Assembly: GCA_021296415.1 (NCBI GenBank)
Contig: JAGWAL010000013.1
Span: 12,158-74,116, forward strand
Direction of reading: 5' to 3'
Source of the DNA: Acidimicrobiia bacterium
Lineage (GTDB): Bacteria > Actinomycetota > Acidimicrobiia > Acidimicrobiales > CATQHL01
Length of the DNA stretch: 61,959 bases
The stretch's first letter is position 1. Each line of letters begins with the position of its first letter. Below the pieces are notes generated by a model. That model was not told where the DNA came from. It worked only from the letters and a program-made list of their open reading frames with translations, and searched no databases. The translations under genes and the position numbers were made by a program. Positions 18,148 through 46,701 of the stretch are shown here, in pieces.

Positions 18148-18179
18148 GTGTAGCCCTACGGAGGGCCTGAGGAGGCTCC

Positions 18180-19108: not shown

Positions 19109-19126
19109 TCGTTTGTATCCAAACGA
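19109..19126. promoter_or_regulatory. palindrome TCGTTTG-TATC-CAAACGA upstream of the ABC transporter operon (candidate operator)
   Basis: Read directly in a locally AT-richer stretch. A 7-bp-stem hairpin (CCCGCAT...ATGCGGG, 19152-19174) follows in the leader. Confidence 0.35.
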
Positions 19127-19200
19127 AACATGTGGCAGTGTTTGGGGTGCGCCCGCATCACGGACACATGCGGGCACGGGGCAAGGAAGGGAAGGCCGAT

Positions 19201-27759: not shown

Positions 27760-27778
27760 CCGGAGCCGGCCGCGCCCC

Positions 27779-29065
27779 TCAGAGGTACGGCAGGTACGTG
27801 TCGAGTTCCCAGTCGGTGACGTGGGCAGTGAACTGCGCCCACTCGGTGCGCTTGACGGCGGTGAACTGCGCCACCGTCTCGGCGCCGAAGGCCTCGACGA
27901 AGGTCTCGTCGGCCTCCAGTTCGTCGAGGGCCTCGGCCAGAGAGCCGGGCGCGTGCACCTCGCAGCTGACGTTCTCGAGACCGTCGAGTGTCTCCGGCGG
28001 CGGGCACTCCAGTTCGTCGGCGACCCCGAGGCGGCTTGCCGTCAGGATCGCGGCGGCGGCGATGTGCGGGCTGGCCGCCGGGTCGGCGAGGCGGTTCTCC
28101 AGGCGGGTGGACGAGCCGCGTTCGGGGTTCACCCGCACCGTCGTGCAGCGGTGGTCGTGCCCCCAGTTCTGCCAGTAGCCGCAGAGCTGTGCCGGGGCCA
28201 GGCGCTTGTAGGAGTTGACCGTGGGACAGCACAGCGCCGTCATCGGCCGCAGGTACGCCAGTTGCCCGGCGATGCACTGCTTGGCGAGCGTCGAGAGGCC
28301 GTCGGGAGCGGCGTGATCCACGAGGGCGAGGTCCCCCGAGTCGTCAACGAAGCTGAGGTTCACGTGCAGGCCGTTGCCGCCCCGGTCGGCGATCGGCTTT
28401 GGCAGGAAGGTCAGCAGGAGGTCCCGCTCCGCCGCAACCTCCCGCGCCATCGTCTTGAACAGGAACGCCTCGTCGGCGGCGGCGATGGCGTCGTCGTAGA
28501 CCAGCGTGAACTCGAACTGGCTCTCGTCGTACTCGGCGTTCACCGACTCCAGGGAGAACCCGCACGCCGCCGCCTGCGTCACGATGTCGCGGCAGACACC
28601 CGACGGGTCGTTGAAGTGCCCGGTGCCGTAGACGAAGGATCCGGGCGCGCCGTACGGCTTCCAGCCGCCGTCACCGTCGGGCCCCATGAGGTAGGCCTCG
28701 AACTCGTAGCCCACCTTGGGCGTGAACCCCCTGTCCTCCCAGGCGGCCACGGCGCGACGCAACACCTCCCGGGGCGCGAAGGGAATCGGTGCGCCCTCGA
28801 AGGTGAGGTCACCGACGACGACACCGACGCCCTCCTCCCAGCCGGGGCGCACGTCGTCGAGGCTCAGGCTGCACGTCAGGTCGGGCATGCCCTCCAGGAA
28901 ACCCGCCCCGGGCACGGGCCCCATGTAACGGTCGTAGTTGAGCGCGAAGGACGTGATGCAGTGCCGCGCCCCGCCGGCCGCCACCGCGGCGGGCAGGTAC
29001 TTGCCGCGCGGCAGGTTCAGATGATCGGGCCAGAGCACGCGGATCTGCTGGTACTCGGCACTCAC
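27779..29065 (-). CDS. glutamine synthetase-fold ligase (gamma-glutamyl-amine synthetase candidate)
   Basis: ORF 27779..29119. GTG at 29065 has AGGAGG 6 nt upstream. GS catalytic-domain motifs present: GGNGLHVNLSF, PTVNSYKRL and RLENRLADPAASPH. Confidence 0.85.
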   Translation of the reverse strand: MSAEYQQIRVLWPDHLNLPRGKYLPAAVAAGGARHCITSFALNYDRYMGPVPGAGFLEGMPDLTCSLSLDDVRPGWEEGVGVVVGDLTFEGAPIPFAPREVLRRAVAAWEDRGFTPKVGYEFEAYLMGPDGDGGWKPYGAPGSFVYGTGHFNDPSGVCRDIVTQAAACGFSLESVNAEYDESQFEFTLVYDDAIAAADEAFLFKTMAREVAAERDLLLTFLPKPIADRGGNGLHVNLSFVDDSGDLALVDHAAPDGLSTLAKQCIAGQLAYLRPMTALCCPTVNSYKRLAPAQLCGYWQNWGHDHRCTTVRVNPERGSSTRLENRLADPAASPHIAAAAILTASRLGVADELECPPPETLDGLENVSCEVHAPGSLAEALDELEADETFVEAFGAETVAQFTAVKRTEWAQFTAHVTDWELDTYLPYL

Positions 29066-29085
29066 GGCGCACCTCCTGTCTGTCT

Positions 29086-29107
29086 CGCAAGCCCCGGGGA
29101 GCTTGCG
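29086..29107. promoter_or_regulatory. inverted repeat CGCAAGC-N8-GCTTGCG in the ligase/MarR divergent spacer (candidate MarR operator)
   Basis: Read directly. Lies 21 nt upstream of the ligase start codon. Confidence 0.35.
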
Positions 29108-29257
29108 GCGTCGTACCACAGGCCACCCCCGGCGTCGAATCTGCCGGGGCGCGGCGTGCGGGCGCAGAGATTCGGGCCCGGTCCCGCGGCGGAGTCCCTA
29201 CGCTCGCCGCGTGCCGGTCCGCCGTCGGGCGGCGGGGGCTGGCGTATTGTGGCGACC

Positions 29258-29779
29258 ATGCCGCGGGCCTTCGCCGCCGGGGACGACGAACTCGTCGAGG
29301 CCGAGTGCCTCATCCGCGCCGAGCTCGGCGCCCTGGATCTGGACCTGCTGGCACTCGCCGCCGTGTCGAACATCTTCCGGGCCGCCACCGCGGTGCGGAA
29401 CCACATGGAGCGCGGCGTGCTCCACCAGTACGGACTCTCCTGGAGCGCCTTCGTGGTGCTGTTCGTGCTGCGCGTCTGGGGGGAGCAGGAGTCCGGGCAC
29501 CTCGCCGCCGAGGCCGGCATCACCGGCGGGACGCTCACCGGCGTGCTCAACACGCTGCAGCGCAAGGGGTACGCCGAGCGCTCCGTGCATCCCACCGACG
29601 GTCGCCGCATGCTCGTGCGGACCACCGAGTCGGGGCACCGCGTCGTCGACGAGATCATGCCCGCCTTCAACAAGCAGGAGGCGCTGGTCACCCGCGACCT
29701 CAGCGACACCGAGGCCACCCAACTGGCGGCGTACCTGCGGACGCTGCTGCGCACCGTTGCTGACCTGAACACATCCTGA
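29258..29779 (+). CDS. MarR-family transcriptional regulator
   Basis: ATG 29258 in ORF 27821..29779. Winged-helix region ...SGHLAAEAGITGGTLTGVLNTLQRKGYAERSVHPTDGRRMLV... Confidence 0.88.
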   Translation: MPRAFAAGDDELVEAECLIRAELGALDLDLLALAAVSNIFRAATAVRNHMERGVLHQYGLSWSAFVVLFVLRVWGEQESGHLAAEAGITGGTLTGVLNTLQRKGYAERSVHPTDGRRMLVRTTESGHRVVDEIMPAFNKQEALVTRDLSDTEATQLAAYLRTLLRTVADLNTS

Positions 29780-29883
29780 ATCCGGCCTCGACAACTCCCC
29801 CGAAAAACTGTTAGGGTCCAAACGATTCTACCCACGCGTGCCGGGCGGTGACGGCGCGCCGACCGCAGGGAACGAGGCGAGGT

Positions 29884-30762
29884 ATGGGCGAGATCGTCGG
29901 CGCAGGGCTCGTGTCGCACGTCCCCCCCATCGTCATGCCCGAGGCGGAGCGGCGGCTCCTCAACGACGGGGAGGATTTCAGCCTCTGCGCCGGCCTCGAG
30001 CGCCTGCGGGCCGAGCGCCTCGACGGCTTGCGACCCGATGTGATCGTGGTGTTCGACACGCACTGGTTCAGCACCTTCGAGCACGTGTGCAGCGCGCACG
30101 AACGCCGTCGCGGTCTGTTCACGTCCGACGAGCTGCCGCGGGGCATGCGGCAGATGCCCTACGACATCCCCGGCGATCCCGAGCTGGCCTTCGGGCTGGC
30201 GGCCCTGGCGGAGGCTCGGGACGACACCTGGGTGCTGGCCTGCGACGATCCCCACCTGCCGATCCACTACCCCACCGTCAACCTTCTGGGGTACTTGCAG
30301 GGCGACGAGGCCTGGATGTCGGTGAGCATCTGCCAGACCGCCACGGCGGGGGACTTCCTGCTGCTGGGCGAGTTGCTGGCGGCGGCGGTGGCCGATCTGG
30401 ACCGCCGGGCGGTCCTGCTGGCCTCGGGGGGCTTGAGCCACCGGTTCTGGCCGCTGCGGGAACTGCGCTCGCACGAATCCGCGGATCTGCGCAACATCAT
30501 CAGCCGCGAGGCACGGGCCGCTGACGAGAGTCTCCTCGAGCAACTGCGTGCCGGCGACCACGCCGCTGTGCTGGCGGGAGTGGACGGGTTCCGCCGTCAC
30601 GCGCCGGAGGGCTTCTTCGGCCACTACCTGATGATGGCGGGGGCGCTGGGCGGCGCGGCCTGCCGGGCACCCGGCGAGATGTTCTCCGCCTACGAATCGG
30701 CGGCGGGCACCGGCCAGGCGCACGTCTGGTTCGACCGTCCCGCCGGCGGCTGGAAGGCTTGA
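29884..30762 (+). CDS. class III (LigB-type) extradiol ring-cleavage dioxygenase, HpaD (homoprotocatechuate 2,3-dioxygenase)-like
   Basis: ATG 29884 in ORF 29848..30762. VSHVPP, IVVFDTHW, FTSDELPRGMRQMPYDIPGDPELA, LLASGGLSHRF and AAGTGQAHVWF parallel E. coli HpaD as I remember it. Confidence 0.8.
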   Translation: MGEIVGAGLVSHVPPIVMPEAERRLLNDGEDFSLCAGLERLRAERLDGLRPDVIVVFDTHWFSTFEHVCSAHERRRGLFTSDELPRGMRQMPYDIPGDPELAFGLAALAEARDDTWVLACDDPHLPIHYPTVNLLGYLQGDEAWMSVSICQTATAGDFLLLGELLAAAVADLDRRAVLLASGGLSHRFWPLRELRSHESADLRNIISREARAADESLLEQLRAGDHAAVLAGVDGFRRHAPEGFFGHYLMMAGALGGAACRAPGEMFSAYESAAGTGQAHVWFDRPAGGWKA

Positions 30763-30809
30763 GTTCCACCGCGCCGATCGGCCAGGATCATGATCCCGAG
30801 GAGGCTGCC

Positions 30810-31664
30810 ATGAGATTCGCCAACGTGTCCGGACGGGCCTGCCTGGTGCTGGACGGTCGGGCGGTGGACATCGCCGAGGCGTCGGGCGGCGCCCTGAGCT
30901 CGGACCCGATGATGACGGCCGACCTCGCCAATCATGCGGCGCTGCGGGCGCTGGCCGCCGACGTCGATCCTGCCTCCTGGCCCGCACTGCGGGAGGCCGA
31001 CCTGGGGCCGCCCGTTCCGCATCCGGGGAAGATCATCGCCCTCGCCCTCAACTATCGGACCCATGCGGAGGAGGCCGGTCTGGCGATCCCCACCGAGCCG
31101 CACGTCATGGCCAAGTTCCCCACCTGCATCTGCGGTCCCGGCGCCGACGTGCCGATCGGTGACCTGGAGATGGTCGACTACGAGGTGGAGTTGGTGCTGG
31201 CAGTGGGGCGGCGCTGCAAGGGGGTGGCCGCGCCTGATGCCTGGAGCCACATCTCGGGCCTCACCTGCGGCAACGACGTCAGCGATCGCAACGAGCAGTT
31301 CCGCCCGCCCGTGCGCCAGTTCTCCCTGGCCAAGAGCTACGACGCCTTCGGGCCCATCGGCCCGACCATGATCACGCCCGACGAGGTTCCGAACCGCGAC
31401 GACCTTGCACTCGGTTGCCGGGTGGACGGCGAGGTGCGCCAGCAGGCCCGCACCAGCGACTTCATCTTCGACGTGAGCTACCTGATGGCGTGGCTGTCCC
31501 GCTACGTCACACTCGAGGTCGGCGATCTCATCTTCACCGGTACGCCGGGCGGCGTGGGGGACTCCATGGATCCGCCCACGTACCTGCGCCACGGTCAGGT
31601 GGTGGAACTGGAGATCGAGGGCATCGGCACGCTGCGCAACCGGATCGTGGCCGGGGAGGGTTGA
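30810..31664 (+). CDS. fumarylacetoacetate hydrolase (FAH) family protein
   Basis: ATG 30810 (GAGGAGG upstream) in ORF 30759..31664, ...DYEVELVLAVGR...GLTCGNDVSDR...LEVGDLIFTGTPGGVG... Confidence 0.85.
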   Translation: MRFANVSGRACLVLDGRAVDIAEASGGALSSDPMMTADLANHAALRALAADVDPASWPALREADLGPPVPHPGKIIALALNYRTHAEEAGLAIPTEPHVMAKFPTCICGPGADVPIGDLEMVDYEVELVLAVGRRCKGVAAPDAWSHISGLTCGNDVSDRNEQFRPPVRQFSLAKSYDAFGPIGPTMITPDEVPNRDDLALGCRVDGEVRQQARTSDFIFDVSYLMAWLSRYVTLEVGDLIFTGTPGGVGDSMDPPTYLRHGQVVELEIEGIGTLRNRIVAGEG

Positions 31665-31667
31665 GCC

Positions 31668-32039
31668 GTGCGGGTCGTGGTCGGCGGTGACAGGAGTTCA
31701 ACCTACGGGGGCCTCTTCACCGGCCGCGTGGAGCTGGAGATGCTGCACGCCACCGCCGGCGACGACGAGCCCGACACCGCCCACGTGCACTTCAGCGACG
31801 GGGCGGTCACCAACTGGCACAGCCACCCCGGGGGCCAGCTGATCTACGTGGCGGCCGGGCGCGGCCGGGTCGGCACCGACGCCGACGGCGCCGTGCCGCT
31901 GGAGCCGGGCACGCTGGTGGTGGCTCCGCCGAACGAGCGCCACTGGCACGGCGCGGCTCCTGGCTGCGACTGCACGCTCCTGTGCGTCACGTGGGGCACG
32001 ACCTGCTGGACCGACGAGGCACCCGGCCTCGGCGACTGA
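31668..32039 (+). CDS. cupin-domain protein
   Basis: ORF 31668..32039 with cupin motifs NWHSHPGGQLIYVAAG and PPNERHWHGA. Confidence 0.75.
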   Translation: MRVVVGGDRSSTYGGLFTGRVELEMLHATAGDDEPDTAHVHFSDGAVTNWHSHPGGQLIYVAAGRGRVGTDADGAVPLEPGTLVVAPPNERHWHGAAPGCDCTLLCVTWGTTCWTDEAPGLGD

Positions 32040-32172
32040 CGCCGCAGACCGGAACCTGGTCTCGCGGTGGTCCGGGCAGCGCCGCCGGCGGCCTAGCAAT
32101 GGCCGCCTACAGCGCCCCCGACACCCCCGCCCTCGCGATCCTGTGGTTGCGGTGGAGGAAGGCCACGAACAC

Positions 32173-33582
32173 GTGAGTCCCGCGACCTCCGGCGTACCCG
32201 AAGTGGCCGTCATCGGCTACGCGCTGGCCAACCTGCTGGGCCGGGCCGGCATAGAGACCCGCGTCCACGAGCGCTGCACCGAGCCGTACCCGCTGCCGCG
32301 TGCCTGCCACCTCGATGCCGAGATCATGCGCATCTTCCAGAACATCGGGCTGGGCGACGAGATGGCTGCGCTCGTCGAACCCAGCAGGGGCATGCTATTC
32401 GTGGACGCCGACGGTCGGCCGCTGTTCGACTACGAGGACTTCGTCCGCGACCCCATCCTGGGTTGGCACGAGGACTACGTCTTCATCCAGCCCGAACTGG
32501 ACGCCGTGCTGCGCGCCGGCGTGGACCGCTTCGACTGCGTGGACGTGCGGCTCGGCGCCGAGGTCGCCGACTGGCGGGAGGTGCCCGCCCGGTGGGTGGT
32601 GGCCTGCGACGGCGCCGCCGGCACGTCCCGGCCAAGGGCCGGCATCGACTTCGTGGACCTCGGCTACGACCAGCGGTGGCTGGTCGTGGACGTGATGCTC
32701 TCGCGGCCCGTCGAGCTGCCCGGCATCATCTGTCAGGTCTGCGATCCGAAGCGGCCCGCCACGTTCGTGCCGTCGGCCCGCGACCACCGCCGCTGGGAGT
32801 TCCGCCTGGCCCCCGGTGAGTCCGACGAGCAGGCCGCCGATCCGGAGAACGTGTGGCAGCTCCTGGCCCCCTGGCTGCAGCCGGGCGACGGGGAACTCGT
32901 GCGGGCCGCGGTTTACGACTTCCACGCCACCGTCGCCGAGACCTGGCGCCACGGGCGGCTGCTGCTGGCGGGCGACGCGGCCCATCAGATGCCGCCGTTC
33001 ATGGGTCAGGGCATGTGCTCGGGCATCCGCGACGCCGCCAACCTGGCCTGGAAGCTGCAGGCCGTGCTGCACAACGGCGCCCCGGAGGGGCTGCTGGACA
33101 GCTACGAGGCCGAGCGCCGCCCGCACGTCGAGCGCTGCATCGAACTGTCCATCGAGGCGGGCCGGCTGCTGGACGAGCCGGCCTTCCCCGAACCCGACAG
33201 CGACGACGGGGAGCGCTGGTCGCGCCTCCCCCCGCTCTCCGGACTTTTCCAGCAGAGCGCCGCGCCCGCACCCTTCCCCATCGGCCACCAGGCTCGCCAG
33301 CCGACCGTGGTGCTGGAGGGGGAGCGCCTCCTGCTGGACGACCTGGCCGGACCCGGCTGGTACCTCGTGAGCGACGGCCCGGCCGGCGGCGCCGGGCTGG
33401 CACGGGTGGTGGATGCGACACGGCTGGGCGACCCCGACGGCTGGCTGGCGAGGCTCCTCGGCGGCTCGGCCGCGGTCCTGATCCGCCCCGACCGCTACGT
33501 CTACGGCACCGCGAGCACGACGGCCGACGTGGCGGCCCTGCTGGCGGATGCCCGCCGCAGCGTCGGCCTGGAGAGCGCCTGA
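32173..33582 (+). CDS. FAD-dependent aromatic hydroxylase, MhpA/PheA-TfdB class, with a truncated dinucleotide-binding motif
   Basis: ORF 32143..33582 (GTG 32173 is a plausible start). VACDGAAGTSR and GDAAHQMPPFMGQGMCSGIRDAANLAWKL are intact. The N-terminal VAVIGYALANLLGRAG lacks the GxGxxG core. Confidence 0.75.
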   Translation: MSPATSGVPEVAVIGYALANLLGRAGIETRVHERCTEPYPLPRACHLDAEIMRIFQNIGLGDEMAALVEPSRGMLFVDADGRPLFDYEDFVRDPILGWHEDYVFIQPELDAVLRAGVDRFDCVDVRLGAEVADWREVPARWVVACDGAAGTSRPRAGIDFVDLGYDQRWLVVDVMLSRPVELPGIICQVCDPKRPATFVPSARDHRRWEFRLAPGESDEQAADPENVWQLLAPWLQPGDGELVRAAVYDFHATVAETWRHGRLLLAGDAAHQMPPFMGQGMCSGIRDAANLAWKLQAVLHNGAPEGLLDSYEAERRPHVERCIELSIEAGRLLDEPAFPEPDSDDGERWSRLPPLSGLFQQSAAPAPFPIGHQARQPTVVLEGERLLLDDLAGPGWYLVSDGPAGGAGLARVVDATRLGDPDGWLARLLGGSAAVLIRPDRYVYGTASTTADVAALLADARRSVGLESA

Positions 33583-33599
33583 GGACCGGTCGCGGCGGC

Positions 33600-34868
33600 T
33601 CAGCCCGGGACGATGCGCAGCGGCAGCCGTTTCAGGCCGTTGATGAAGTTGGAGCGCACCCGGGTGACCTCGCCGCACACCTCCAGGTGCAGGTTCCTGC
33701 GCAGCAACTCCTCGAGGAACACGCGCACCTCCAGGCGGGCCAGCCACGATCCGAGACAGAAGTGCGGGCCTCCCCCGCCGAAGGTGACGTGACGGTTGGG
33801 GTCGCGGCCCAGGTCCAGCGTGTGGGGGTCGTCGAAGACCTCCTCGTCGTAGTTGGCCGAGAGGTACCAGGTCACGACCTTGTCCCCCGCGGCCACGGGG
33901 ACGCCGGCGACCTCGGTGTCCATCACCGCCGTGCGGCGGAAGTGGATCTGGGGCGAGGCATAGCGCAGGACCTCCTCGACCGCCGTCGTCAGCAGGTCGG
34001 GTTCGGCACGCAGGCGTGCCAGCTCGCCGGGGCGCTCGGCCAGGGCAAGGGCACCGTGATTGAGGGCGTGGCGGGTGGTCTCGTTGCCGGCGATGACCAG
34101 CAGCAGGAAGAGCGTGTTGAAGTTCTGCCGCGACAGCTCACCGGCGGCCACGAGCAGCGACACCACGTCGTCGGCCGGGTGGCGGCGCTTGCCGTCGGCG
34201 AGTTGCCGGGCGTAGGCGAAGACCCTCGTCGAAGTGGGGCTGCGGAACGGCAGGAGCCGGTACGGGTCGGTGTCCTCCCTGTCGAAGACCACCTCGGAGT
34301 AGTCCGGGTCGGCGTGGTAGATGATCCTGTCGGCCCACTCGAACAGGCTGCCGGTGTCCTCGTCGGGCACGCCCAGGATGCGGCTGATCATGAGGATCGG
34401 CAGCGGGCGGGCCACGGCGCCGACGAAGTCCACCTCGGCTCCGGCGCCGTTGCCCCCGGCATCTGCGAGCGCCTCGTCGAGGATCTGCGCCATGAGCTCC
34501 CGGGCGTCGCCCGTCCACCGCTCGATGCTGCGGCGGGTGAAGTTGCGCGACACCATCCGGCGCAGCCGGGTGTGCTCGGGCGGATCCGTCTCCAGCATGG
34601 TGCGCCGGGCCTCGCGGGCCTCGGGGTCGCGCTCCAACTCCTCCAACTCGGTGCCGCCGACCTGCGACGAGAACGTTTCGTGGTCGCGGTGGACCGCCAC
34701 GAGGTCGGCCCAGCGGGTCACCGCCCAGAAGCCGGCGTTGCCGTCCGGCTCGGGGTGCCAGGCCACGGGCATCTCGCGCCGCAGGCGAGCGAACGCCTCG
34801 TGAGGAATGGCTCGCTCGTAGACGTCGTGGCTGCAGATGTCGACCGGCGAGAGCGGGCCTCTTGTCAC
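33600..34868 (-). CDS. cytochrome P450 (copy 3)
   Basis: ORF 33600..35159. GTG 34868 overlaps the stop of the upstream gene (GTGA). Contains IAGNETT, EEVLR, FGGGGPHFCLG and RSNFINGLKRLPL. Confidence 0.9.
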   Translation of the reverse strand: MTRGPLSPVDICSHDVYERAIPHEAFARLRREMPVAWHPEPDGNAGFWAVTRWADLVAVHRDHETFSSQVGGTELEELERDPEAREARRTMLETDPPEHTRLRRMVSRNFTRRSIERWTGDARELMAQILDEALADAGGNGAGAEVDFVGAVARPLPILMISRILGVPDEDTGSLFEWADRIIYHADPDYSEVVFDREDTDPYRLLPFRSPTSTRVFAYARQLADGKRRHPADDVVSLLVAAGELSRQNFNTLFLLLVIAGNETTRHALNHGALALAERPGELARLRAEPDLLTTAVEEVLRYASPQIHFRRTAVMDTEVAGVPVAAGDKVVTWYLSANYDEEVFDDPHTLDLGRDPNRHVTFGGGGPHFCLGSWLARLEVRVFLEELLRRNLHLEVCGEVTRVRSNFINGLKRLPLRIVPG

Positions 34869-35560
34869 CGGCCTGCCACGTCGTCGAGGAACCAATCCAC
34901 TAGCCGCTGCGTGCGACGGGACGCCGAGGCCTCCAGGCCGGCGGTCTCGGCCGCCATCACACCAGGGTCGACGCCGTGGGCCCGGAGTTCCTCGTCCCCG
35001 ATCACGAGCCATTCCGCCAGCAGCTCGCTGTCCACCTCGGGGTGGAACTGCAATCCCAGGCTCCGGCCCTCGCGAAAGGCCTGCGGGCCGTTGCGATTGC
35101 GGGCGATCTCGGTGGCACCCTCGGGGACCGTGAAGCGGTCGTAGTGCCACTGGAACCACGGTCCGGGTGAGAGGCCGTCAGGCTCGTCGGTGTCGATTGT
35201 GAGCCAGCCGAACTCGGGGACCGGCGCCCGTGACACCGTGCCGCCCAGGGCTGCGGACAACACCTGGCCACCGAAGCAGAGGCCGAGGACGGGCCGCCCG
35301 GAGTCGTGGGCACGCCGGACGAAGTCGAGTTCACGGTGGATCCAGCTTCCGATCCTGGCCTCGTCGTACACCGACCACACCGCTCCCAGCACCACCACCA
35401 GGTCGTAGTCGCCGGGATCGGGGAACGCACGGTCGCTGACGGGGTTCTGCACGTCGCCGACCACCCGGAAGGGCTCCAGTTCGACGCCCCGGCCGGCGAG
35501 AGCCTCGCCGACGAGCGCCGCGTGCCCAGTCGGGTCGTGCTCGACCGCCAACCCCTTCAC
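34865..35560 (-). CDS. class I glutamine amidotransferase-fold protein (gamma-glutamyl hydrolase candidate)
   Basis: ORF 34865..35743, likely GTG 35560. Nucleophile elbow PVLGLCFGGQ and the His-Glu motif LQFHPE are present. Confidence 0.8.
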   Translation of the reverse strand: MKGLAVEHDPTGHAALVGEALAGRGVELEPFRVVGDVQNPVSDRAFPDPGDYDLVVVLGAVWSVYDEARIGSWIHRELDFVRRAHDSGRPVLGLCFGGQVLSAALGGTVSRAPVPEFGWLTIDTDEPDGLSPGPWFQWHYDRFTVPEGATEIARNRNGPQAFREGRSLGLQFHPEVDSELLAEWLVIGDEELRAHGVDPGVMAAETAGLEASASRRTQRLVDWFLDDVAGR

Positions 35561-35591
35561 CGCCGCAGCATACCGGCGGCCATCCGACGGC

Positions 35592-39148: not shown

Positions 39149-40273
39149 TCAGGCGTTCTGCTGCGGCGGGTGGTCGCCGGTGAGACCCTGCTCGCGCCAG
39201 AGGGCGAGTTTCTCGAGGACAGGGAAGTCGTTGAAGCTGAAGAGGCAGGCATCGTCGGACGTCGAGGCGTTGGCGTGCTCGTGCCATGTCCACGAGGGCA
39301 CGCAGAAGATGTCCATCTCGACCCAGTCGAAGCGGTGCCCGCCGATGACCGAGTGGCCCGATCCCCTGGCAACCTGGTAGACGACGTTGCCGGTGTGCCG
39401 GTGGGCCCGCGTCGCCTCGCCGGGACGGAGCAGTTGCATGGCCGCACCCATCGTGGCCATGACGTGGCCGCCGGTGTGAGGGTTCACATAGCGCAGCATC
39501 ACGCCGTCGTGGGGACTCTCGACACCGGCCGAGGCGGCCCGCTGCAACGACTCGTAAGTGGCGTCGAAGGGATAGCGCAGCAGCGGCGAGTAGGGCCGGT
39601 CCCAGGAGTAGCCGGTCGGCAGCAACGCGGGACCGCCGAACGCGCCTTCGGAGTCGTTGGGTGGATGGTCGACGCTCTGGTGGTGGTCGGGATGCACCTC
39701 GTACCAGTTGGCTTCGAGGGCGTTGGCGAGCGGGATGTCCAGGCCGTCCTGCCAGAGGCAGGTCTCACCCTCCTCGTCCACGCCGTGGTCGTGCCAGGTG
39801 CCACCGGGCGTGAGCACGAAGTCTCCGGGGTGGAGGTCGACGCGGTGGCCGTCCACGACCGTGTAACCGCCCGAGCCCTCCATGATGAAGCGCAGGGCCG
39901 AGGCGCCGTGGCGGTGCGCCGAGGCACGCTCGCCGGGCCGCATGACCTGGATGCCACTGAAGAGCAGTCCGCACACGGCGCTGATCTCTCTGCGCCTCGG
40001 GTTGCGCAGGTAGACGACCCTGCGACCCGCGTCCTCGGGCGCCACGAGGTCGAGTGAGCGCAGCGCCTGGATGCGCAGCTCGGACCACCGCCACAGAGTC
40101 GGCGCCGAGAACGCATGCGGCTCCCAGGGCTCGATCTCGTTCGCGACGGTCCACAGAGCGCCGGTGTCGAGGCGGTCCAGCTCGCCGTAGTACTGCTGCA
40201 GATCTTCGCTGTCGGCAACCCGGGCGCGACCCAACTCCCGGTCGCGCGCCTCGCCGGCGGTTCGGATGCTCAT
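39149..40273 (-). CDS. gentisate 1,2-dioxygenase-like bicupin dioxygenase
   Basis: ORF 39149..40273, ...IQVMRPGERASAHRHGASALRFIMEGSGGYTVVDGHRV...GDFVLTPGGTWHDHG..., plus a second cupin with HRHTGNVVYQV. Confidence 0.8.
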   Translation of the reverse strand: MSIRTAGEARDRELGRARVADSEDLQQYYGELDRLDTGALWTVANEIEPWEPHAFSAPTLWRWSELRIQALRSLDLVAPEDAGRRVVYLRNPRRREISAVCGLLFSGIQVMRPGERASAHRHGASALRFIMEGSGGYTVVDGHRVDLHPGDFVLTPGGTWHDHGVDEEGETCLWQDGLDIPLANALEANWYEVHPDHHQSVDHPPNDSEGAFGGPALLPTGYSWDRPYSPLLRYPFDATYESLQRAASAGVESPHDGVMLRYVNPHTGGHVMATMGAAMQLLRPGEATRAHRHTGNVVYQVARGSGHSVIGGHRFDWVEMDIFCVPSWTWHEHANASTSDDACLFSFNDFPVLEKLALWREQGLTGDHPPQQNA

Positions 40274-41298
40274 GGTCGGACCTCCTGGCTGTCGTGACCG
40301 GCAAGGGTGTCGAGGAGCTCGATGGGACCGTCGAAGGGCTCATCCGGACCCCGCGGCGTGCGATCGACCGCGAGAGAGAACACGTCGAAGCGGTTGTAGT
40401 GGCCGGTGATGTTGTGCATCTGGTTGTGCTGGACGCACCGCGCCAGGTCGATCTCTCCGTAGGCGATGCCCTCTTCGTCGATGAGCGGCTCGCCGACGAC
40501 GGCCCCGTCGGGACCGCAGATCCCACTCCACGCCGAGTTGCGCCGGCGCAGGAGTTCCTGCGCCTCCGGCCCGGCCAGAGCCATGGCCGCGATGATCTCG
40601 TCGCCGATGGTCGAGCACGCAGCGACGGTGAAGACCTTCCCTTCGAACGAGTGCGCCGCGGTTCGGGTCCATATGGCAGCGGCCATGTCGTAATCCTCGG
40701 GCGCCGTCGGCAGAGCGATGTAGCCCGCCACGTGCACGAGTTCGCCCTGCTCGAGGAGGGCGAACCGTGCCAGCGGATTCGAGTTCTCGCCGCATGCCAG
40801 CACGCCGAGCGGTCCCAGCGGTGTGTCGTGGACGACGAGGCTCGAACCGTCGCCGCCGGTCCAGGTGAGCTTCTCGGCCCAGGTCGGCACGAGTTTGCGG
40901 TGCCGCCCGAGGAGGCGACCCCGATCGTCGATCGTCAGCGTGGTGTTGTAGATCGTGCCGACCCCCCGGCACGATCGTTCGTTGACGCCGATCACGACGT
41001 GGACGCCGTGGCGGCGCGCGGCAGCGGCGACGGCTGCGACCTCGGGGCCGGGAACGGTCACGGCGGTGTCGTGGAGGCGCCGGAACCACTCGCTGCCTGC
41101 GAGCGGCGTCATGATCCAGTTCCAGTACGGGTAGCCGGCGATGAAGACCTCCGGGAACGCCACGAGCGAGGCGCCGCCCCGGGCGGCTTCGGCCACCAGC
41201 GAGGCGGCACGTTCGGCGGTGGCCTGCGGTTCGAGGAACGCGGGCGCCATCTGGACTGCTGCCGCCAGATAGGGAGGCGGGTAGGAGGCGCTGCTCAT
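40270..41298 (-). CDS. nitrilase-branch carbon-nitrogen hydrolase
   Basis: ORF 40270..41298. The Glu-Lys-Cys triad context is AFPEVFIAGYPYW, HRKLVPTWAEK and LACGENSNPL. 4-nt overlaps with both neighbours. Confidence 0.82.
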   Translation of the reverse strand: MSSASYPPPYLAAAVQMAPAFLEPQATAERAASLVAEAARGGASLVAFPEVFIAGYPYWNWIMTPLAGSEWFRRLHDTAVTVPGPEVAAVAAAARRHGVHVVIGVNERSCRGVGTIYNTTLTIDDRGRLLGRHRKLVPTWAEKLTWTGGDGSSLVVHDTPLGPLGVLACGENSNPLARFALLEQGELVHVAGYIALPTAPEDYDMAAAIWTRTAAHSFEGKVFTVAACSTIGDEIIAAMALAGPEAQELLRRRNSAWSGICGPDGAVVGEPLIDEEGIAYGEIDLARCVQHNQMHNITGHYNRFDVFSLAVDRTPRGPDEPFDGPIELLDTLAGHDSQEVRP

Positions 41299-42563
41299 CG
41301 GTCGGCCACGAACGTGATCGGGAGGTGCTTGATCCCGTTGATGTGGTTGCTGCGCAGCCGATCCGGTGGGCCCGCCAACTCCAGCCGTCGCACCCGACGG
41401 GCGAGTTCCTCCAGCACCGCGGCGATCTGCAGGCGGGCGAGATGCGAGCCGAGGCAGAAGTGCGGGCCGCCCCGACCGAAGGCGATGTGATTGTTGGGCG
41501 AGCGATCGATGACGAAGTGCTGCGGCTCGTCGAAGTGCTTCTCGTCGCGGTTCGCCGAGGCGTAGTACATGACCACCCGCTCACTCGCCCGGATCGTCAC
41601 CGAACCCAACCTCGTGTCCTCCGTGGCGACGCGGCGGACGAAGTGGACCGCAGTGGCCCAGCGCAGCACCTCGTCGGCGGCGACGTACGAGTCGATCCCT
41701 CCGGCACGGAGGCGGCGCCACTCGCCGGGATGTGTCGCCAGGGCCGCCAACCCGTGACTGATCGAGTGCCGGGTTGTCTCGTTGCCCGCCACCACGAGCA
41801 TCAGGAAGTAGTTGCAGAACTCCCGGTCGGTGAGCTCCCGGCCGCCGGCCCGACCGGTCGCGAGCGCGCTGACGACGTCTGCGCCCGGCCGGTGCCGGCG
41901 CTCGACCGCCAGCTCCCGCCCCAGGTCGAACGCCTCGAGGGAGGCCGGATGGCCGAACGGCAGGAGACGGCGCAACTCGGCGGGCACGGCCTCGACGGCA
42001 GGGTCCCGGAACTCGGGGTCGTCGGACCCGATGACGGCATCGCTCCAGCGGATCATGTCGTCGCGCCGGTCCGGCGGGATGCCCATGATCTGGCAGAGCG
42101 TGAGGATGGGGAGGCGCTCGGAGATGACCGAGACGGCGTCACAGGTGCCGCGCCCGAGTGCCTCGTCGATGAGTCCGGCCGCCGTGGAGCGAACCGACTC
42201 CCGCAACTTCCGGACCGCCTTCGGCGTGAACAGCCGCGCCGTGATCCGGCGCATGTCGGTGTGCTGCGGAGGATCCATCTCGAGCAGGGTCCGCCGCACG
42301 TCGCACTGCTCGTCGTCGAGGTCGTCGAGGCTGATGACGCCTTTGCGGGAACTGAAGCGCCCCGTGTCGCGCGAGACGACCACGATGTCGTCATACGCCG
42401 TCACCGCCCAGAACCCCTCGTGCCCGCCGCCGCGATCGTTCCACGCGACGGGGCTCGATCTCCGGAGGCGGGCGAACTCCTCGTGCGGCACGCCGCTCCT
42501 CCACAGTTCCGGGTCGGAGAGATCCACGGCGGCCCGCGGGCGTGTGGGAGCCTTTGCCGTCAC
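41295..42563 (-). CDS. cytochrome P450 (copy 4)
   Basis: ORF 41295..42563 (GTG start) with VAGNETT, DEVLR, FGRGGPHFCLG and RSNHINGIKHLPI. Confidence 0.92.
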   Translation of the reverse strand: MTAKAPTRPRAAVDLSDPELWRSGVPHEEFARLRRSSPVAWNDRGGGHEGFWAVTAYDDIVVVSRDTGRFSSRKGVISLDDLDDEQCDVRRTLLEMDPPQHTDMRRITARLFTPKAVRKLRESVRSTAAGLIDEALGRGTCDAVSVISERLPILTLCQIMGIPPDRRDDMIRWSDAVIGSDDPEFRDPAVEAVPAELRRLLPFGHPASLEAFDLGRELAVERRHRPGADVVSALATGRAGGRELTDREFCNYFLMLVVAGNETTRHSISHGLAALATHPGEWRRLRAGGIDSYVAADEVLRWATAVHFVRRVATEDTRLGSVTIRASERVVMYYASANRDEKHFDEPQHFVIDRSPNNHIAFGRGGPHFCLGSHLARLQIAAVLEELARRVRRLELAGPPDRLRSNHINGIKHLPITFVADR

Positions 42564-42830
42564 GTCGACTCACCCACGACACAATGTATAGCGTATTAGT
42601 CGTGATCGCTGTAATAGCAATATGCTATGAACATCACCCGAAACCTGGAGGTTGCCGGCGTCGTCCCAGCCGGACTCCCGTCCAGAGCCATCTGATCCGC
42701 TCTTGGCTAGGCACTATACGTCCTCTCCACCTCGACATACAACACGACGGCAGCGGTGATCAGAGTGATAGCTTGGCCCGCCCAGCGCTCAGAGCCTTAC
42801 GTAATCCTTGCGATAGCGAATTATCAATCC

Positions 42831-42836
42831 TAGAAT
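42831..42836 (+). promoter_or_regulatory. candidate -10 box TAGAAT, 6 nt before the GTG of the PaaX-like gene (a leaderless transcript is plausible)
   Basis: Read directly: cctagaatgagagtGTGgcg. No SD is possible in the 6-nt gap. Confidence 0.35.
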
Positions 42837-42842
42837 GAGAGT

Positions 42843-43673
42843 GTGGCGAACCCTCGGGAGACGATTCTGGACCTCTACGGATCGTTCATCAGAGACTTCG
42901 GGGGCTGGATCGCGGTGGCCGATCTGATTCGCCTCCTCGACACGCTCGGCATCGACGAGGCGTCGTCCCGCTCGGCGGTCTCCCGCATGAAACGGGCCGA
43001 ACTCCTGCAGCCGGCCATCCTGGGGGGCGTCAAGGGCTACAGACTCACCACGCCGGCCGAGGAGTGGTTCGCCGACGGCGACCAGCGCATCCTGCATCGG
43101 AGCGGTCCGGTCGAGCACACCCGCTGGGTGCTCGTCTCGTTCTCGGTGCCGGAGGGCGAGAGGATGATGCGATACCGGCTGCGGGCCCGCCTCAGCGCTC
43201 TCGGATTCGGGCAGGCCTCCGCGGGACTCATGGTCGCTCCCGTCGCCGTGATGGCGGAGACCGAACGGACGCTGCGGCGTGAGGGGCTCGACTCGTACGT
43301 CACGCTCTGGGACGCGACCCACGCGGGTTTCACCAGCACCGCGGCCATGGTGGCGTCCGCCTGGGACCTCCCGGCGATCCGAGCCGCCTACGACACCTAC
43401 ATGGCATCGCAGAGGCCGGTGCCGGCGGCGCTGGAGTCCGTGGTCGATGACGACCGGGAGGCGTTCCGTCACTACGTCGCCAACGTCAACGCCTGGCGTG
43501 CCCTCCCCTACCTCGACCCTGGACTCCCACTCTCGGCGCTGCCGGCCGGCTGGCCGAGTTCCGAGGCCGCGCAGCTCTTCGACGCCGTCGCGGCCCGGTT
43601 GCGCCCCGGCGCCTGGCGCTGGTTCGTCAGGATCTGCTCCCGGAATCACGAGGTGAGGGCGAAGGCAGGATGA
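42843..43673 (+). CDS. PaaX-family transcriptional regulator
   Basis: ORF 42843..43673, ...LDLYGSFIRDFGGWIAVADLIRLLDTLGIDEASSRSAVSRMKRAELL..., with a PaaX-like C-terminal domain. Confidence 0.78.
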   Translation: MANPRETILDLYGSFIRDFGGWIAVADLIRLLDTLGIDEASSRSAVSRMKRAELLQPAILGGVKGYRLTTPAEEWFADGDQRILHRSGPVEHTRWVLVSFSVPEGERMMRYRLRARLSALGFGQASAGLMVAPVAVMAETERTLRREGLDSYVTLWDATHAGFTSTAAMVASAWDLPAIRAAYDTYMASQRPVPAALESVVDDDREAFRHYVANVNAWRALPYLDPGLPLSALPAGWPSSEAAQLFDAVAARLRPGAWRWFVRICSRNHEVRAKAG

Positions 43674-44464
43674 TCGATCATGACCGCCATCCGATCTCCT
43701 GGCGCGATGCCGGCGAGGGTCCGCCCGTGATATTCCTGCACGGACTCGGCGGCACCCGCACGGCCTGGGATCCGCAGTTGCGCGGCCTGGCCGATCGGTT
43801 CCGCTGCATCGCCTGGGACATGCCGGGCTACGGGGCCTCGGCCCGCCTGGAGGAATTGACGTTCCCCGCCATCGCCGACAGCCTCGCCGGGCTGCTGGAC
43901 ACTCTGGAACTCGAGACCGCCGATCTCGTCGGGTTGTCGTTCGGCGGCATGCACGCGCTGCACGCGGCCGTCCACCATCCCGCCCGGGTGCGCCGGCTGG
44001 TGCTCGCCGACACGAGCCCCGCATTCGGACTCGACGGAACCACCGCACAGGAATGGAAGGAGGCCCGGCTCGCACCGATCGAGCGCGGCCTGGCCCCCTC
44101 CGACATGGCCGCGGGGGTCATCGAGTCGATCTGTGCGAAGCCTCTGGAGCCCGGGATTCGCGGTCAACTCGTTGCATCGTTCGCTCGGATCTCCGCGGCC
44201 GGCTTCCGGGCCTCCGTCGAGTGCCTGGTGCATCACGACGTTCGCGGCCAACTGGCCGGCATCGCCTGCCCGTCGCTGGTGATCGTTGGCGAGGCCGACC
44301 GGGAGACGCCCGTGGCGTACGCGGAAGCGCTGGCGGCCGGCCTTCCGAACAGCAGCCTCGAGGTGCTGGAAGGAGTCGGCCACCTGTCGCCGTCGGAAGC
44401 TCCGGAGCACTTCAACCGGCTCGTCGGAGACTTCCTCGGGCGGCCCGACGCGCCGAGCGATTGA
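43670..44464 (+). CDS. alpha/beta hydrolase
   Basis: ORF 43670..44464 with VIFLHGLGG, nucleophile elbow GLSFGG and a late GHLSPSE His. ATGA overlap with the regulator. Confidence 0.85.
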   Translation: MIDHDRHPISWRDAGEGPPVIFLHGLGGTRTAWDPQLRGLADRFRCIAWDMPGYGASARLEELTFPAIADSLAGLLDTLELETADLVGLSFGGMHALHAAVHHPARVRRLVLADTSPAFGLDGTTAQEWKEARLAPIERGLAPSDMAAGVIESICAKPLEPGIRGQLVASFARISAAGFRASVECLVHHDVRGQLAGIACPSLVIVGEADRETPVAYAEALAAGLPNSSLEVLEGVGHLSPSEAPEHFNRLVGDFLGRPDAPSD

Positions 44465-44479
44465 CAGCAGGAGGACTCG

Positions 44480-45658
44480 ATGAGCGACACGATCCGCACA
44501 CCCGCCCGGCTGGCGATCGTGGACCGGGTCAGCCGGCTCGGTCCGCTGTTCGCCAAGCGCACCGCCGAGTACGACCGTGAGGCGCGTTTCCCGTACGAGA
44601 ACTGGGGGGACCTCCGCGACGCCGGACTGCTGGGCATCGCCGTTCCCGTCGAAGCAGGCGGCCTGGGCGGCGACTTCGTGGCCTACGCCCTGGCGTCGGA
44701 GGAACTGGGGCGCCACTGCGCCGCCACGGCGCTCACCTTCAACATGCACGTGGCGACGACGTTGCTCGTCGGTGAGATCGCCGACGCACTCGACCTGACC
44801 GCAGCGGAACGGGGGCTGCTGGCCGAGCGCCGCGCCCGACTCTGGGACGGCATCGCCACCGAGCAGCACATCCACAGCCAGCCCTTCTCGGAGGGCCGCG
44901 CCGCCGGGGCCACCGGCGGCTACGCCACCCGCGCCACGCCGGTCGAGGGTGGCTACCGGGTCACCGGACGCAAGATCTTCGCATCGCTGGCCGGCGCCTC
45001 CAACTACCACAACATCCTGTGCCACACCGACGGCGACCCGCTGGTGCGGCTGCTGGGCGTTCCCCACGATGCCCATGGTCTGAGGATCGAAGGCGAGTGG
45101 GATCCGCTCGGCATGCGCGCAACCGACTCGCGCAACCTGGTCATGAACGACGTGTTCGTACCCGCGGAGAACGAGTGGCTACCGCCCGGAGCCTTCGACC
45201 AGGCCGCGACGCGCTGGCCGTACATCTTCATGACGCTCTCATTCACCTACCTGGGGCTGATGCGGGCAATACGCGACTTCACAGCCGAATATCTTCGGGA
45301 GAGTGGCCGAGCGACCAATCCCATCAAGCAACAAGGATGGGCGGAGATGAACCTCGTCTACGAGCAGGCGCAGGCGCTCTGTTACCGGATCCTCGGCGAC
45401 GTGTGCGTGGATCCCGAGCCGGCCAAGGTCCACCGGGCGTGGGCTTCGCTGGTCACGACGATGGAGGGGGCTCCGGCCATGGCCACCACCGCCATCCGCA
45501 TCTGCGGTGGACGGTCGATGCTGCGCCCGAGCCTCATCGAGCAGGCCTACCGGGATGCACGCTGCGGTGCCGCCATGCTGCCGTGGAGCGTGGAGGTGTG
45601 CCTGGAGCGGCTCGGTGCCGCGGGCCTCGCTGATCCGGCAGAGGGAGCCTCGCGATGA
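44480..45658 (+). CDS. acyl-CoA dehydrogenase-fold flavoprotein (paralogue of 14516..15718)
   Basis: ORF 44480..45658. Shares EYDREARFPYENW..., LTFNMHVAT and the C-terminal RDARCGAAMLPWSVEVCLERLG with the other copy. Confidence 0.75.
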   Translation: MSDTIRTPARLAIVDRVSRLGPLFAKRTAEYDREARFPYENWGDLRDAGLLGIAVPVEAGGLGGDFVAYALASEELGRHCAATALTFNMHVATTLLVGEIADALDLTAAERGLLAERRARLWDGIATEQHIHSQPFSEGRAAGATGGYATRATPVEGGYRVTGRKIFASLAGASNYHNILCHTDGDPLVRLLGVPHDAHGLRIEGEWDPLGMRATDSRNLVMNDVFVPAENEWLPPGAFDQAATRWPYIFMTLSFTYLGLMRAIRDFTAEYLRESGRATNPIKQQGWAEMNLVYEQAQALCYRILGDVCVDPEPAKVHRAWASLVTTMEGAPAMATTAIRICGGRSMLRPSLIEQAYRDARCGAAMLPWSVEVCLERLGAAGLADPAEGASR

Positions 45659-46701
45659 ACACCACCGCCACCGAATGGCGCTGGGTGCAGCGCTATGCCG
45701 AACAGTTCCGGGCGTGCGACCTGCAGGCCGGCGAGGTGGCCGTGCTGCTGTCGGAGGCCGCCAGCAGGCCGCTGATCGTCGAGACGGCCCGCATGGCGCT
45801 GGAGTCGCTGGGCGCGGCCGTGGCCGACGTGCGCATGCCGACGCCGACCAATCCCGGCCCTGTCCCCATCCGCTCGACCGGGGCCTCGGTGGCCCTGGCC
45901 GGGCACCGGGCGGCCATCGCCGCTCTGGCGGCCGCCGACTTCGTCGTGGACTGCACCGCCGAGGGACTGCTGCACGCCCCCGAGTTGGGCGAGATCCTGG
46001 CGGGGGGCAGCCGCGTGCTGATGATCTCCGCCGAGCACCCCGAGAATGCCGAACGCTGGCCCCACGACCCGACGCTGGCCGAGCGCGTGGAACACGGTGT
46101 GGCGCTGCTGACCGCCGCCGAGGTGATGGGTATCACCAGCGCCGCCGGCACCGACCTGCGAGTCCACCTCCCCGGCGCGGTCCGGGCCGGCTCCCACGGC
46201 TGGTGCACCGCACCCGGCAGCATCGCCCACTGGCCCGGCGGACTGGTCCTGGCGTTCCCGGCCGAGCGAACCGTCAACGGCACGCTCGTGCTGGCGCCCG
46301 GTGACGTCAACCTCACCTTCAAGGAGTACATTCGCGAGCCCATCAGCCTGCGGATCATCGACGACTACATCGTCTCCATCGACGGCGACGGCCACGATGC
46401 GGCACTGATGGAGTCCTACCTGGCGTCCTTCGAGGAAGTCGACGCCTACGCGGTCAGCCACGTGGGCTGGGGGATGAACCCGGGCGCCCGCTGGGAGGCC
46501 CTGGCCATGTGGGACAAGGGCGACCTCAACGGCACCGAACTGCGGGCCTTCGCCGGCAACGTGGTCTACTCCACCGGCGCCAACGAGACCGCCGGCCGCT
46601 TCTGCCGCGGCCACTTCGACCTGCCCATGCGCAACTGCACCGTCACCCTCGACGGCGAAACGGTCGTCGACGAGGGGAGACTACGCGCCGACCTTCGCTA
46701 G
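45655..46701 (+). CDS. NicX-like (2,5-dihydroxypyridine 5,6-dioxygenase / M29 aminopeptidase-fold) protein
   Basis: ORF 45655..46701. ...HWPGGLVLAFP...GTLVLAPGD...SHVGWGMNPGARW...STGAN...CRGHFDLPMRNC... matches my recollection of P. putida NicX, including the His/Ser/His-x-Asp iron-ligand contexts. Confidence 0.65.
   Translation: MNTTATEWRWVQRYAEQFRACDLQAGEVAVLLSEAASRPLIVETARMALESLGAAVADVRMPTPTNPGPVPIRSTGASVALAGHRAAIAALAAADFVVDCTAEGLLHAPELGEILAGGSRVLMISAEHPENAERWPHDPTLAERVEHGVALLTAAEVMGITSAAGTDLRVHLPGAVRAGSHGWCTAPGSIAHWPGGLVLAFPAERTVNGTLVLAPGDVNLTFKEYIREPISLRIIDDYIVSIDGDGHDAALMESYLASFEEVDAYAVSHVGWGMNPGARWEALAMWDKGDLNGTELRAFAGNVVYSTGANETAGRFCRGHFDLPMRNCTVTLDGETVVDEGRLRADLR

Follow-up and report, generated by a model that had tools for sequence, protein, structure and literature searches.

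A NicX-family clade with a replaced pocket glutamate, within a conserved three-gene module behind a PaaX-like regulator in an Acidimicrobiia genome

The window analysed here is a stretch of 61,959 nucleotides with a G+C content of 70%, taken from an Acidimicrobiia-type genome that is incomplete (77.5%), and all coordinates refer to positions in it unless a contig or locus is named. The feature under study lies at 42843-46701 on the plus strand, where four genes encode a PaaX-like regulator, an alpha/beta hydrolase, a flavoprotein with the fold of the acyl-CoA dehydrogenases (ACADs), and a 348-aa homologue of NicX, the 2,5-dihydroxypyridine (2,5-DHP) 5,6-dioxygenase of the nicotinate pathway. 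The last of these proteins belongs to a distinct and widespread clade of the NicX family, which is found within a conserved three-gene module. The genes of the operon are:

42843-43673, plus strand: PaaX-family regulator of transcription (276 aa), which starts with GTG and opens the operon (PF07848, PF20803, and PF08223 all match)
43670-44464, plus strand: serine alpha/beta hydrolase, 264 aa, of the PcaD/esterase type (Abhydrolase_1, 2.6e-27)
44480-45658, plus strand: ACAD-fold flavoprotein, 392 aa, predicted to be a flavin-dependent monooxygenase (three Acyl-CoA_dh domains)
45655-46701, plus strand: predicted NicX-family mononuclear Fe(II) ring-cleavage dioxygenase, 348 aa, of the Ser/Thr177 clade (match to 7cn3, structural model)

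The order and coordinates of the four genes, as well as their divergence from a P450-nitrilase operon, are as described in a first-pass annotation made from the sequence alone. The same is true of the two ATGA overlaps, which join the regulator to the hydrolase (43670-43673) and the flavoprotein to the 348-aa gene (45655-45658). The hydrolase and the flavoprotein are separated by a gap of 15 nt that contains the motif GGAGGA. What that annotation observed is confirmed, and its interpretation, a possible branch of the 2,5-DHP/maleamate type, is partly supported.

The 348-aa protein is a true member of the NicX family. A phmmer search against all PDB chains, with E values up to 10, returns a sole match, NicX 7cn3 (E 6.5e-53, residues 27-342), and the identity to NicX is about 34-40% over the whole length. 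The AlphaFold model, with a predicted local distance difference test score (pLDDT) of 91.9, superposes on NicX 7cn3 and 7cup with a template modelling (TM) score of 0.90-0.91 and a root-mean-square deviation of 2.1 Å. The protein has no Pfam or NCBIfam match in a Pfam library that lacks PF26233, the precomputed Pfam family of its homologues, and NCBIfam holds no model for it. The motifs HWPGG, SHVGWG, STGAN, and GHFDLPMRNC are all present in the translation, and the resemblance to NicX noticed from them is strong; it had been placed in the C-terminal half of the protein, but the match covers the protein as a whole. Fe(II) is bound in NicX by His265, Ser302, His318, and Asp320 (PMC7910607). With the residue numbers transferred through a HMMER alignment to 7cn3, these ligands correspond to His269, Ser306, His320, and Asp322, so that the His/Ser/His/Asp set is intact. 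Among 81 sequences of the clade, His269 and Ser306 are kept in all, and His320 and Asp322 in 80, the remaining row being gapped.

Many database entries give the homologues of this protein automatic names such as "peptidase M29" or "leucyl aminopeptidase", and the model does share a fold distantly with the aminopeptidases AmpT, PepS, and AmpS. That the protein is an aminopeptidase of the M29 type has nevertheless a negligible probability. The TM scores to these three enzymes are 0.52-0.59 at 14% identity, against 0.91 to NicX, and neither the Pfam profile Peptidase_M29 nor any M29 chain of the PDB is matched at an E value of 10. The metal site is the His/Ser/His/Asp set of NicX, and genes from true nic clusters bear the same wrong automatic names. 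The better fit to M29 enzymes that the first-pass annotation had considered as an outcome is thus not seen, and the protein is not an M29 peptidase. Among the distant structural relatives of the NicX/M29 fold are also CgnB and CgnE (PDB 6zsv and 6zsu) from the biosynthesis of crocagin, with a TM score of about 0.5 to the 348-aa model.

The difference from NicX lies in the substrate pocket. In the NicX structure, Glu177 contacts N1 and O1 of 2,5-DHP through two hydrogen bonds; His189 also binds to O1, and the substrate is kept in position by His105 and Leu104. Together, Glu177, His189, and His105 form a hydrogen-bond network (PMC7910607). In the 348-aa protein, His105, Leu104, and His189 are kept as His107, Leu106, and His192, and the equivalent of Arg293 is also kept, whereas Glu177 is replaced by Ser180 and Glu308 by Thr312. 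The full network is therefore not present, as both histidines remain and the glutamate is replaced. The comparison set consisted of four NicX and four NicD proteins from annotated plasmid nic clusters with the order NicE-NicD-NicX-NicF or similar and with NicAB/NicC upstream. Position 177 is Ser in 79 and Thr in 2 of the 81 clade sequences, and Glu in all nic-type proteins compared; position 178 is variable in the clade and Tyr in the nic-type proteins, and position 308 is Val, Thr, or Asn in the clade and Glu in the nic-type proteins. The clade also has a deletion of two residues at the position of NicX Cys76. In a quick maximum-likelihood tree (IQ-TREE), the window protein, its actinobacterial relatives, and proteins from Ensifer and Sinorhizobium form one clade apart from the nic-type proteins, with a support of 100% in the Shimodaira-Hasegawa-like approximate likelihood ratio test. 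Judged from these alignments, the 348-aa protein is not an orthologue of the NicX of the nicotinate pathway. The lost pocket glutamates would fit a substrate without a free lactam N-H, or one that bears an extra substituent or a negative charge.

The same genome (G000; G-labels denote related genomes and L-labels related loci) carries a second member of the family at 27224-28195 on the minus strand of contig C41 (L013:10156-11250). This paralogue scores 327 bits to NicX 7cn3, against 183 for the window protein, and shows the canonical Phe/Glu/Tyr/His...Glu pattern, so that Glu177, Tyr178, and Glu308 are shared by it and the four NicX proteins of the nic clusters. As a candidate for a genuine 2,5-DHP dioxygenase in this genome, it is stronger than the window protein. 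Its gene stands head-to-head with an amidase-signature gene, near genes for an Asp-dehydrogenase-like protein, hydantoinase B, and a peptide-type ABC transporter.

Beyond these two proteins, the NicX family includes 1505 representatives of 50%-identity clusters at an E value of 1e-3, and 183 at 1e-30. Among the family representatives P0122-P0271, position 177 is occupied by Glu, Gln, Ser/Thr, Asn, Leu, or Gly, and the His/Ser(Ala)/His/Asp ligands are mostly kept; the family is therefore functionally under-explored, and several further subfamilies are, by their residues, probably not 2,5-DHP dioxygenases. To our knowledge, no non-heme iron dioxygenases other than the NicX-type enzymes have been characterised with this fold, and 2,5-DHP is the sole substrate described for them. 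The family is far more varied at its substrate-reading position than that single substrate would suggest. A literature search found no publication describing the Ser/Thr177 clade, nor one in which a NicX homologue is partnered by an ACAD-fold or a glutamine-synthetase-like (GS-like) protein.

The distribution of the clade was followed in a scan of one genome per species, in which a pattern search with two clade-specific motifs was confirmed by tblastn, giving at least 592 confirmed matches. The best 80 of these loci come mostly from Acidimicrobiia, including the sponge-associated Candidatus Poriferisocius, and also from Streptosporangium, Nanopelagicales, and Thermoleophilia. Within the genus of the window, the hydrolase gene and the NicX-like gene form a pair that stands divergent from metK in every genome examined, and since this pair is syntenic across the genus the arrangement is not due to chance. 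For the statistics of neighbouring genes, all open reading frames within 8 kb were clustered without prior labels and the recurrent clusters then annotated, and the counts refer to 41 loci whose 8-kb flanks are complete. Of these, 33 have the hydrolase, 32 the flavoprotein, and 29 both. Next in frequency are a GS-like ligase (22 loci), closest to gamma-glutamylputrescine synthetase with a score below the cut-off, P450 (22), two clusters of GATase/C26 hydrolases (13 and 9), a luciferase-like monooxygenase (12), an ADC-family protein (11), and a LigB dioxygenase (10). The 4-nt overlap between the flavoprotein and the NicX-like gene is shared by this operon and no fewer than 15 other loci.

A phylogenetic profile over 41 related genomes points in the same direction. 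An intact member of the NicX-like clade and the flavoprotein family occur together in the same 16 genomes, and both are absent from the other 25. In one genome that is 95% complete (G016), the pair is reduced to a deletion remnant (L020, G016:C1:3222000-3241999, at about 10151-10700), where residues 1-95 of the hydrolase run into residues 99-158, 214-237, and 327-348 of the NicX-like protein, and there the flavoprotein family is absent. The joint loss in this genome and the joint presence in G024, which belongs to another family, are separate events.

The flavoprotein carries three ACAD domains, and acyl-CoA dehydrogenase was considered as a candidate for its function. In an alignment with butyryl-CoA dehydrogenase (Bcd, 5ol2), however, the Tyr-Glu-Gly of ACADs is replaced by Leu-Pro-Trp, and the position of the IVD type is taken by Pro/Tyr. 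No Glu is thus present at either of the positions that we take to hold the catalytic base (Glu376 in MCAD and Glu254 in IVD), and the candidate was rejected. The model of the protein (pLDDT 84.6) finds its top structural matches in 5z8t, deposited as "Flavin-containing monooxygenase", the N-oxygenase KijD3, TdsC/DszC, and nitrososynthases, with an identity of 19-28% to any solved member. As modelled, the protein is a flavin-dependent monooxygenase and not an acyl-CoA dehydrogenase. It resembles the group D monooxygenases with ACAD fold (DszC/TdsC, KijD3, the nitrososynthases, and 5Z8T) in the fold, in the lack of the dehydrogenase base, and in its presumed dependence on a separate reductase, but represents a family of its own that is tied to the NicX-like clade. 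The ESM Atlas offers generic names only, and a literature search yielded no paper naming PDB 5Z8T or 5GJ7. Genes for flavin reductases lie within the clusters of Ensifer and Streptosporangium; in the genus of the window, those with PF01613 are unlinked to the module, one of them being located at G000:C9:36750-37163. The window holds a second member of the family:

14465-15718, plus strand: second ACAD-fold monooxygenase family member, 58.5% identical to the product of the gene at 44480, beside P450, ADC-family, and FAH genes

All genomes of the genus with the hydrolase/NicX-like pair hold such a paralogue, 57-60% identical and 26-34 kb away where both are on one contig, including those genomes in which no flavoprotein gene lies inside the pair. 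Because the paralogue is present wherever a genome of the genus has the pair, the flavoprotein does not appear dispensable. In lineages more distant from that of the window, the gene that immediately precedes the NicX-like gene resembles the paralogue at 14465 as closely as it does the gene at 44480.

The third partner, the hydrolase, retains a catalytic triad of Ser90, Asp190, and His238, invariant in an alignment with the four NicD proteins. Its best NCBIfam matches are models of PcaD, below the cut-off, and in the PDB it matches esterases and PcaD 2xua best. The pairing of a ring-cleavage enzyme with an alpha/beta hydrolase, which the first-pass annotation had compared with NicX and NicD, holds in that a serine hydrolase regularly stands beside the NicX-like gene. 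The equation of this hydrolase with the N-formylmaleamate deformylase NicD does not hold: the identity to the four nic-cluster proteins is 20% in the multiple alignment, PcaD-type models and esterases score better, and the BLASTP E values are 1e-6 to 1e-9 against NicD, compared with 5e-30 against the hydrolase of the Ensifer module. It is not an orthologue of NicD.

We consider it reasonably probable that the operon joins a PaaX-like repressor gene to a conserved unit of three enzymes that hydroxylate, cleave, and hydrolyse their substrate following the logic of NicC, NicX, and NicD, with non-orthologous partners and outside the nic pathway. In the proposed sequence, the flavoprotein would use reduced flavin from an unlinked reductase to hydroxylate an aromatic compound containing nitrogen, such as a hydroxypyridine/pyridone-like or aminophenol-like ring, leading to a product of the 5-hydroxy-2-pyridone or hydroquinone type. 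Opening of the ring next to the hydroxyl-bearing carbon would follow, with O2 inserted by the NicX-family Fe(II) enzyme, and the serine hydrolase would cut an N-formyl or N-acyl amide (imide) bond, or an ester bond, in the open-chain product. We infer all of these catalytic steps, and likewise the nature of the substrate. The order of hydroxylation, ring opening, and hydrolysis would be that of the lower nic/hpo/pic pathway (NicC, NicX, NicD/Nfo, NicF, and NicE), but the hydroxylase is an ACAD-fold protein of the two-component type instead of a group A flavoprotein, and the hydrolase is PcaD-like. Compared with NicX/Hpo from Pseudomonas putida KT2440 and S16 (PDB 7CN3 and 7CUP), the window protein shares the fold, the iron ligands, and the nearby gene for a serine hydrolase, and differs in the loss of the pocket glutamates, in its separate clade, and in the presence of a canonical-type paralogue in the same genome. 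Its partners are the ACAD-fold monooxygenase and often a GS-like ligase, and not NicC, NicE, and NicF.

The module most likely constitutes one arm of the catabolism of aromatic amines or N-heterocycles, because here and in many other genomes it is located within or next to a set of genes for a gamma-glutamyl-amine ligase, P450, C26 hydrolases, LigB, and ADC-family and FAH proteins. The neighbourhood that points to aromatic amines or amino-acid-derived aromatics also has amino-acid-type permeases and, in Streptosporangium, a kynureninase. Catabolism of amines that depends on gamma-glutamylation occurs in the Atd/Tdn system for aniline, the Ipu system for isopropylamine, and the Pip system for piperidine. 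The GS-like ligase, the C26/GATase-like hydrolase, and P450 recur by the module and also occur in the window, which is a link by gene neighbourhood only, and we know of no NicX-type dioxygenase or flavoprotein of this family in the Atd/Tdn, Ipu, or Pip systems. A more specific form of the idea, which we put forward tentatively and regard as rather improbable, is that the Ser/Thr177 clade represents a new substrate class of NicX-type enzymes that do not act on free 2,5-DHP. The substrate could be a gamma-glutamyl-tagged aminophenol, whose HO-C=C-NH-C(=O) unit would mimic 5-hydroxy-2-pyridone; the hydrolase would then split an imide, and the nitrogen of the arylamine could pass into glutamine. 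As a variant, the product of cleavage by the neighbouring LigB enzyme might reclose on its amine to form the heterocycle that is opened. Either one, if true, would be an undescribed pathway for aromatic amines. The confirmed motif matches of the clade range from sponge symbionts to Actinomycetota of soil and freshwater and to rhizobial plasmids.

Several points weigh against the hydroxylate-cleave-hydrolyse module as it is proposed above. The change of substrate would be read from two pocket residues and from the context only, every characterised enzyme of the NicX family known to us acts on 2,5-DHP, and compounds similar to DHP may still bind, given the kept equivalents of His105, His189, Leu104, and Arg293. 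No flavin reductase is linked to the module here, and this genus lacks the GS-like gene found elsewhere behind the NicX-like gene. The genomes in the phylogenetic profile are related, and therefore not independent samples. At five loci with full flanks (L083, L089, L090, L100, and L105), neither the hydrolase nor the flavoprotein accompanies the NicX-like gene within 8 kb. Four of these (L089, L090, L100, and L105, at about 7700-11020) come from Candidatus Aldehydirespirator and relatives, and at several of them the NicX-like gene follows a gene for an arginase-family protein or a class I/II aminotransferase, which may represent a different use of the enzyme.

The closest alternative keeps the chemistry of the nic pathway, with a genuine 2,5-DHP 5,6-dioxygenase and N-formylmaleamate deformylase, 2,5-DHP being made by the flavoprotein from 2- or 3-hydroxypyridine or hydroxynicotinate, and maleamate passed to another amidase. 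The conserved fold, iron ligands, and equivalents of His105, His189, Leu104, and Arg293 are what such an enzyme would show, the hydrolase is regularly adjacent as in nic clusters, and some databases name clade members "2,5-dihydroxypyridine 5,6-dioxygenase", although these names are automatic. We nonetheless hold this alternative to be unlikely: Glu177 is Ser or Thr in every clade member aligned, Glu308 is lost, a canonical-type paralogue exists in the same genome, and the hydrolase is distant from NicD. The genes expected downstream point the same way. Maleate isomerase (NicE) was not found in four near-complete relatives from the genus (G014, G003, G002, and G006), the search for NicF in the window's genome gave only weak matches of the isochorismatase family (NicF-like, 28-36% identity), and neither NicF nor NicE adjoins the module in the best 80 loci. 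The only NicE-like genes, at L039 and L040, are 6-7 kb away in a neighbouring GDO/nitrilase operon and are 69-71% identical to maleate isomerase. On these grounds, the 2,5-DHP/maleamate branch suggested by the first-pass annotation is not upheld in the sense of the nic pathway.

The two genes of that type provide, on the other hand, one of the points in favour of a route starting from a cyanopyridine or another nitrile, where the nitrilase would yield a pyridine carboxylate, P450 and the flavoprotein would hydroxylate it, the NicX-like enzyme and the hydrolase would open the ring, and the CN-hydrolase would act also as maleamate amidase. This route is further favoured by the control region shared by the two operons, with conserved boxes at both promoters. 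However, adjacency of the nitrilase operon to the module is confined to the window, the genus genomes G002 and G014, and five loci among the best 80 (L028, L032, L033, L039, and L040), which are all among the closest relatives (75-95% identity), and no molybdenum hydroxylase or NicC-type enzyme is present. In most species of the genus, the pair stands directly beside metK without nitrilase, P450, GDO, or PaaX. The proposed link to the nitrilase thus comes down to adjacency in close relatives, and the route is very unlikely. Slightly less so, yet still quite improbable, is an aryl-CoA route, in which the PaaX-like regulator would sense an aryl-CoA, the flavoprotein would act on a CoA thioester as in enzymes of the TdaE type, and the hydrolase would be a thioesterase. 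A PaaX-family regulator does lead the operon, and ACAD-like flavoprotein oxygenases acting on CoA esters are described (PMC8283759). Against this route, no CoA ligase is encoded in the cluster of the window or among the frequent neighbours, the flavoprotein lacks the catalytic Glu and has free-substrate monooxygenases as its closest structures, and PaaX is found beside the module in only 10 of the 77 loci counted, with regulators of the TetR, GntR, or PucR families elsewhere.

The regulator, in agreement with this distribution, is a lineage-specific addition to the module. Among the loci with full flanks, PaaX accompanies the module in 8 of 41. The protein scores 128 bits against TIGR02277, whose equivalog cut-off is 264, and the Pfam and NCBIfam annotation of the window shows no paa genes in the operon or around it between 35 and 50 kb. 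The remark of the first-pass annotation that a PaaX-type regulator without paa genes is unusual is fair, but such a regulator stands beside the module in no more than 10 of the 77 loci counted. The regulator resembles the PaaX repressor of the phenylacetate catabolon from E. coli and Pseudomonas in having all three PaaX domains and in its position at a divergent promoter region that contains repeated boxes, and differs from it in reaching half of the equivalog cut-off score and in the lack of paa genes or a CoA ligase nearby. The region and the operon on its other side are:

39149-42563, minus strand: GDO-like / nitrilase-superfamily / P450 operon, divergent (Pfam/NCBIfam)
42564-42842, no strand: divergent control region of 279 bp between the P450-nitrilase-GDO-like operon and the PaaX-led operon (repeats, alignment)

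Three direct repeats of a 17-nt box, GTRATC-N-TRATAGC (GTGATCGCTGTAATAGC and variants), are located in the control region at 42602-42618, 42756-42772, and 42801-42817. In an alignment with four relatives (five genomes), the spacer is conserved at its two ends only, with two conserved islands of the GCGATCA type, one per promoter, and the four relatives conserve the sequence that surrounds the first and the third copy of the 17-nt box. Since conservation is confined to the vicinity of each promoter, the pattern fits the control of both divergent operons by a single PaaX-like repressor through the conserved boxes, which is probably the case in this lineage. The core of the box presumably resembles the E. 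coli PaaX site (TGATTCGYG), but this likeness of the GTGATCGC boxes is not used as evidence; a literature search for a PaaX operator consensus gave nothing usable. The nitrilase operon is then probably co-regulated with the module in the window, but it is not a conserved partner of it. Within the genus, the regulator, the flavoprotein gene inside the pair, and the P450-nitrilase-GDO-like operon are found only in G000, G002, G014, L028, and L032.

Further upstream, the segments 14465-20544 and 27779-35566 of the window hold homologues of nearly all the recurrent neighbours of the module. These include the ACAD-fold paralogue, a P450 (62% to the cluster type), the ADC-family and FAH proteins, a Peripla_BP_6 binding protein, the GS-like ligase, LigB (62%), a further P450, and a GATase-like gene. 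From about 15.8 to 46.7 kb, the window therefore resembles a single catabolic island into which priA and metK intrude.

A large clade with partners of its own, a flavin monooxygenase and a hydrolase, recurs in the aromatic-amine gene islands of abundant uncultured Actinomycetota, among them sponge symbionts. The DNA of the window itself is present in sponge metagenomes of several studies, and no RNA run is among the sequencing runs listed with it. The automatic names "peptidase M29", "leucyl aminopeptidase", "2,5-DHP dioxygenase", and "acyl-CoA dehydrogenase" given to these genes mislead metabolic reconstruction. Culturable carriers, namely Ensifer adhaerens W2-B9, Sinorhizobium sp. RAC02, and Streptosporangium sp. 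NPDC051022, make the function directly testable.

In a collection of plasmids, the best match has 48% identity and belongs to an operon on plasmids of Ensifer adhaerens and Sinorhizobium (L022, Ensifer adhaerens W2-B9 p1, 155767-163495, and L025, Sinorhizobium sp. RAC02). This operon encodes, in order, the NicX-like protein, an ACAD-family protein, an alpha/beta hydrolase, a TetR regulator, a GS-like protein, a flavin reductase, and an APC permease. The hydrolase of the two plasmids has 430 aa, with an N-terminal extension of about 175 aa, and the Ensifer operon adjoins an IS3 transposase gene. The Streptosporangium locus (L076, 4382-14626), which has no ACAD-fold gene within 10 kb, carries a PucR-type regulator, a kynureninase, and an amino-acid permease on one side, and on the divergent side a flavin reductase, the hydrolase, the NicX-like and GS-like proteins, a TetR regulator, and an amidohydrolase.

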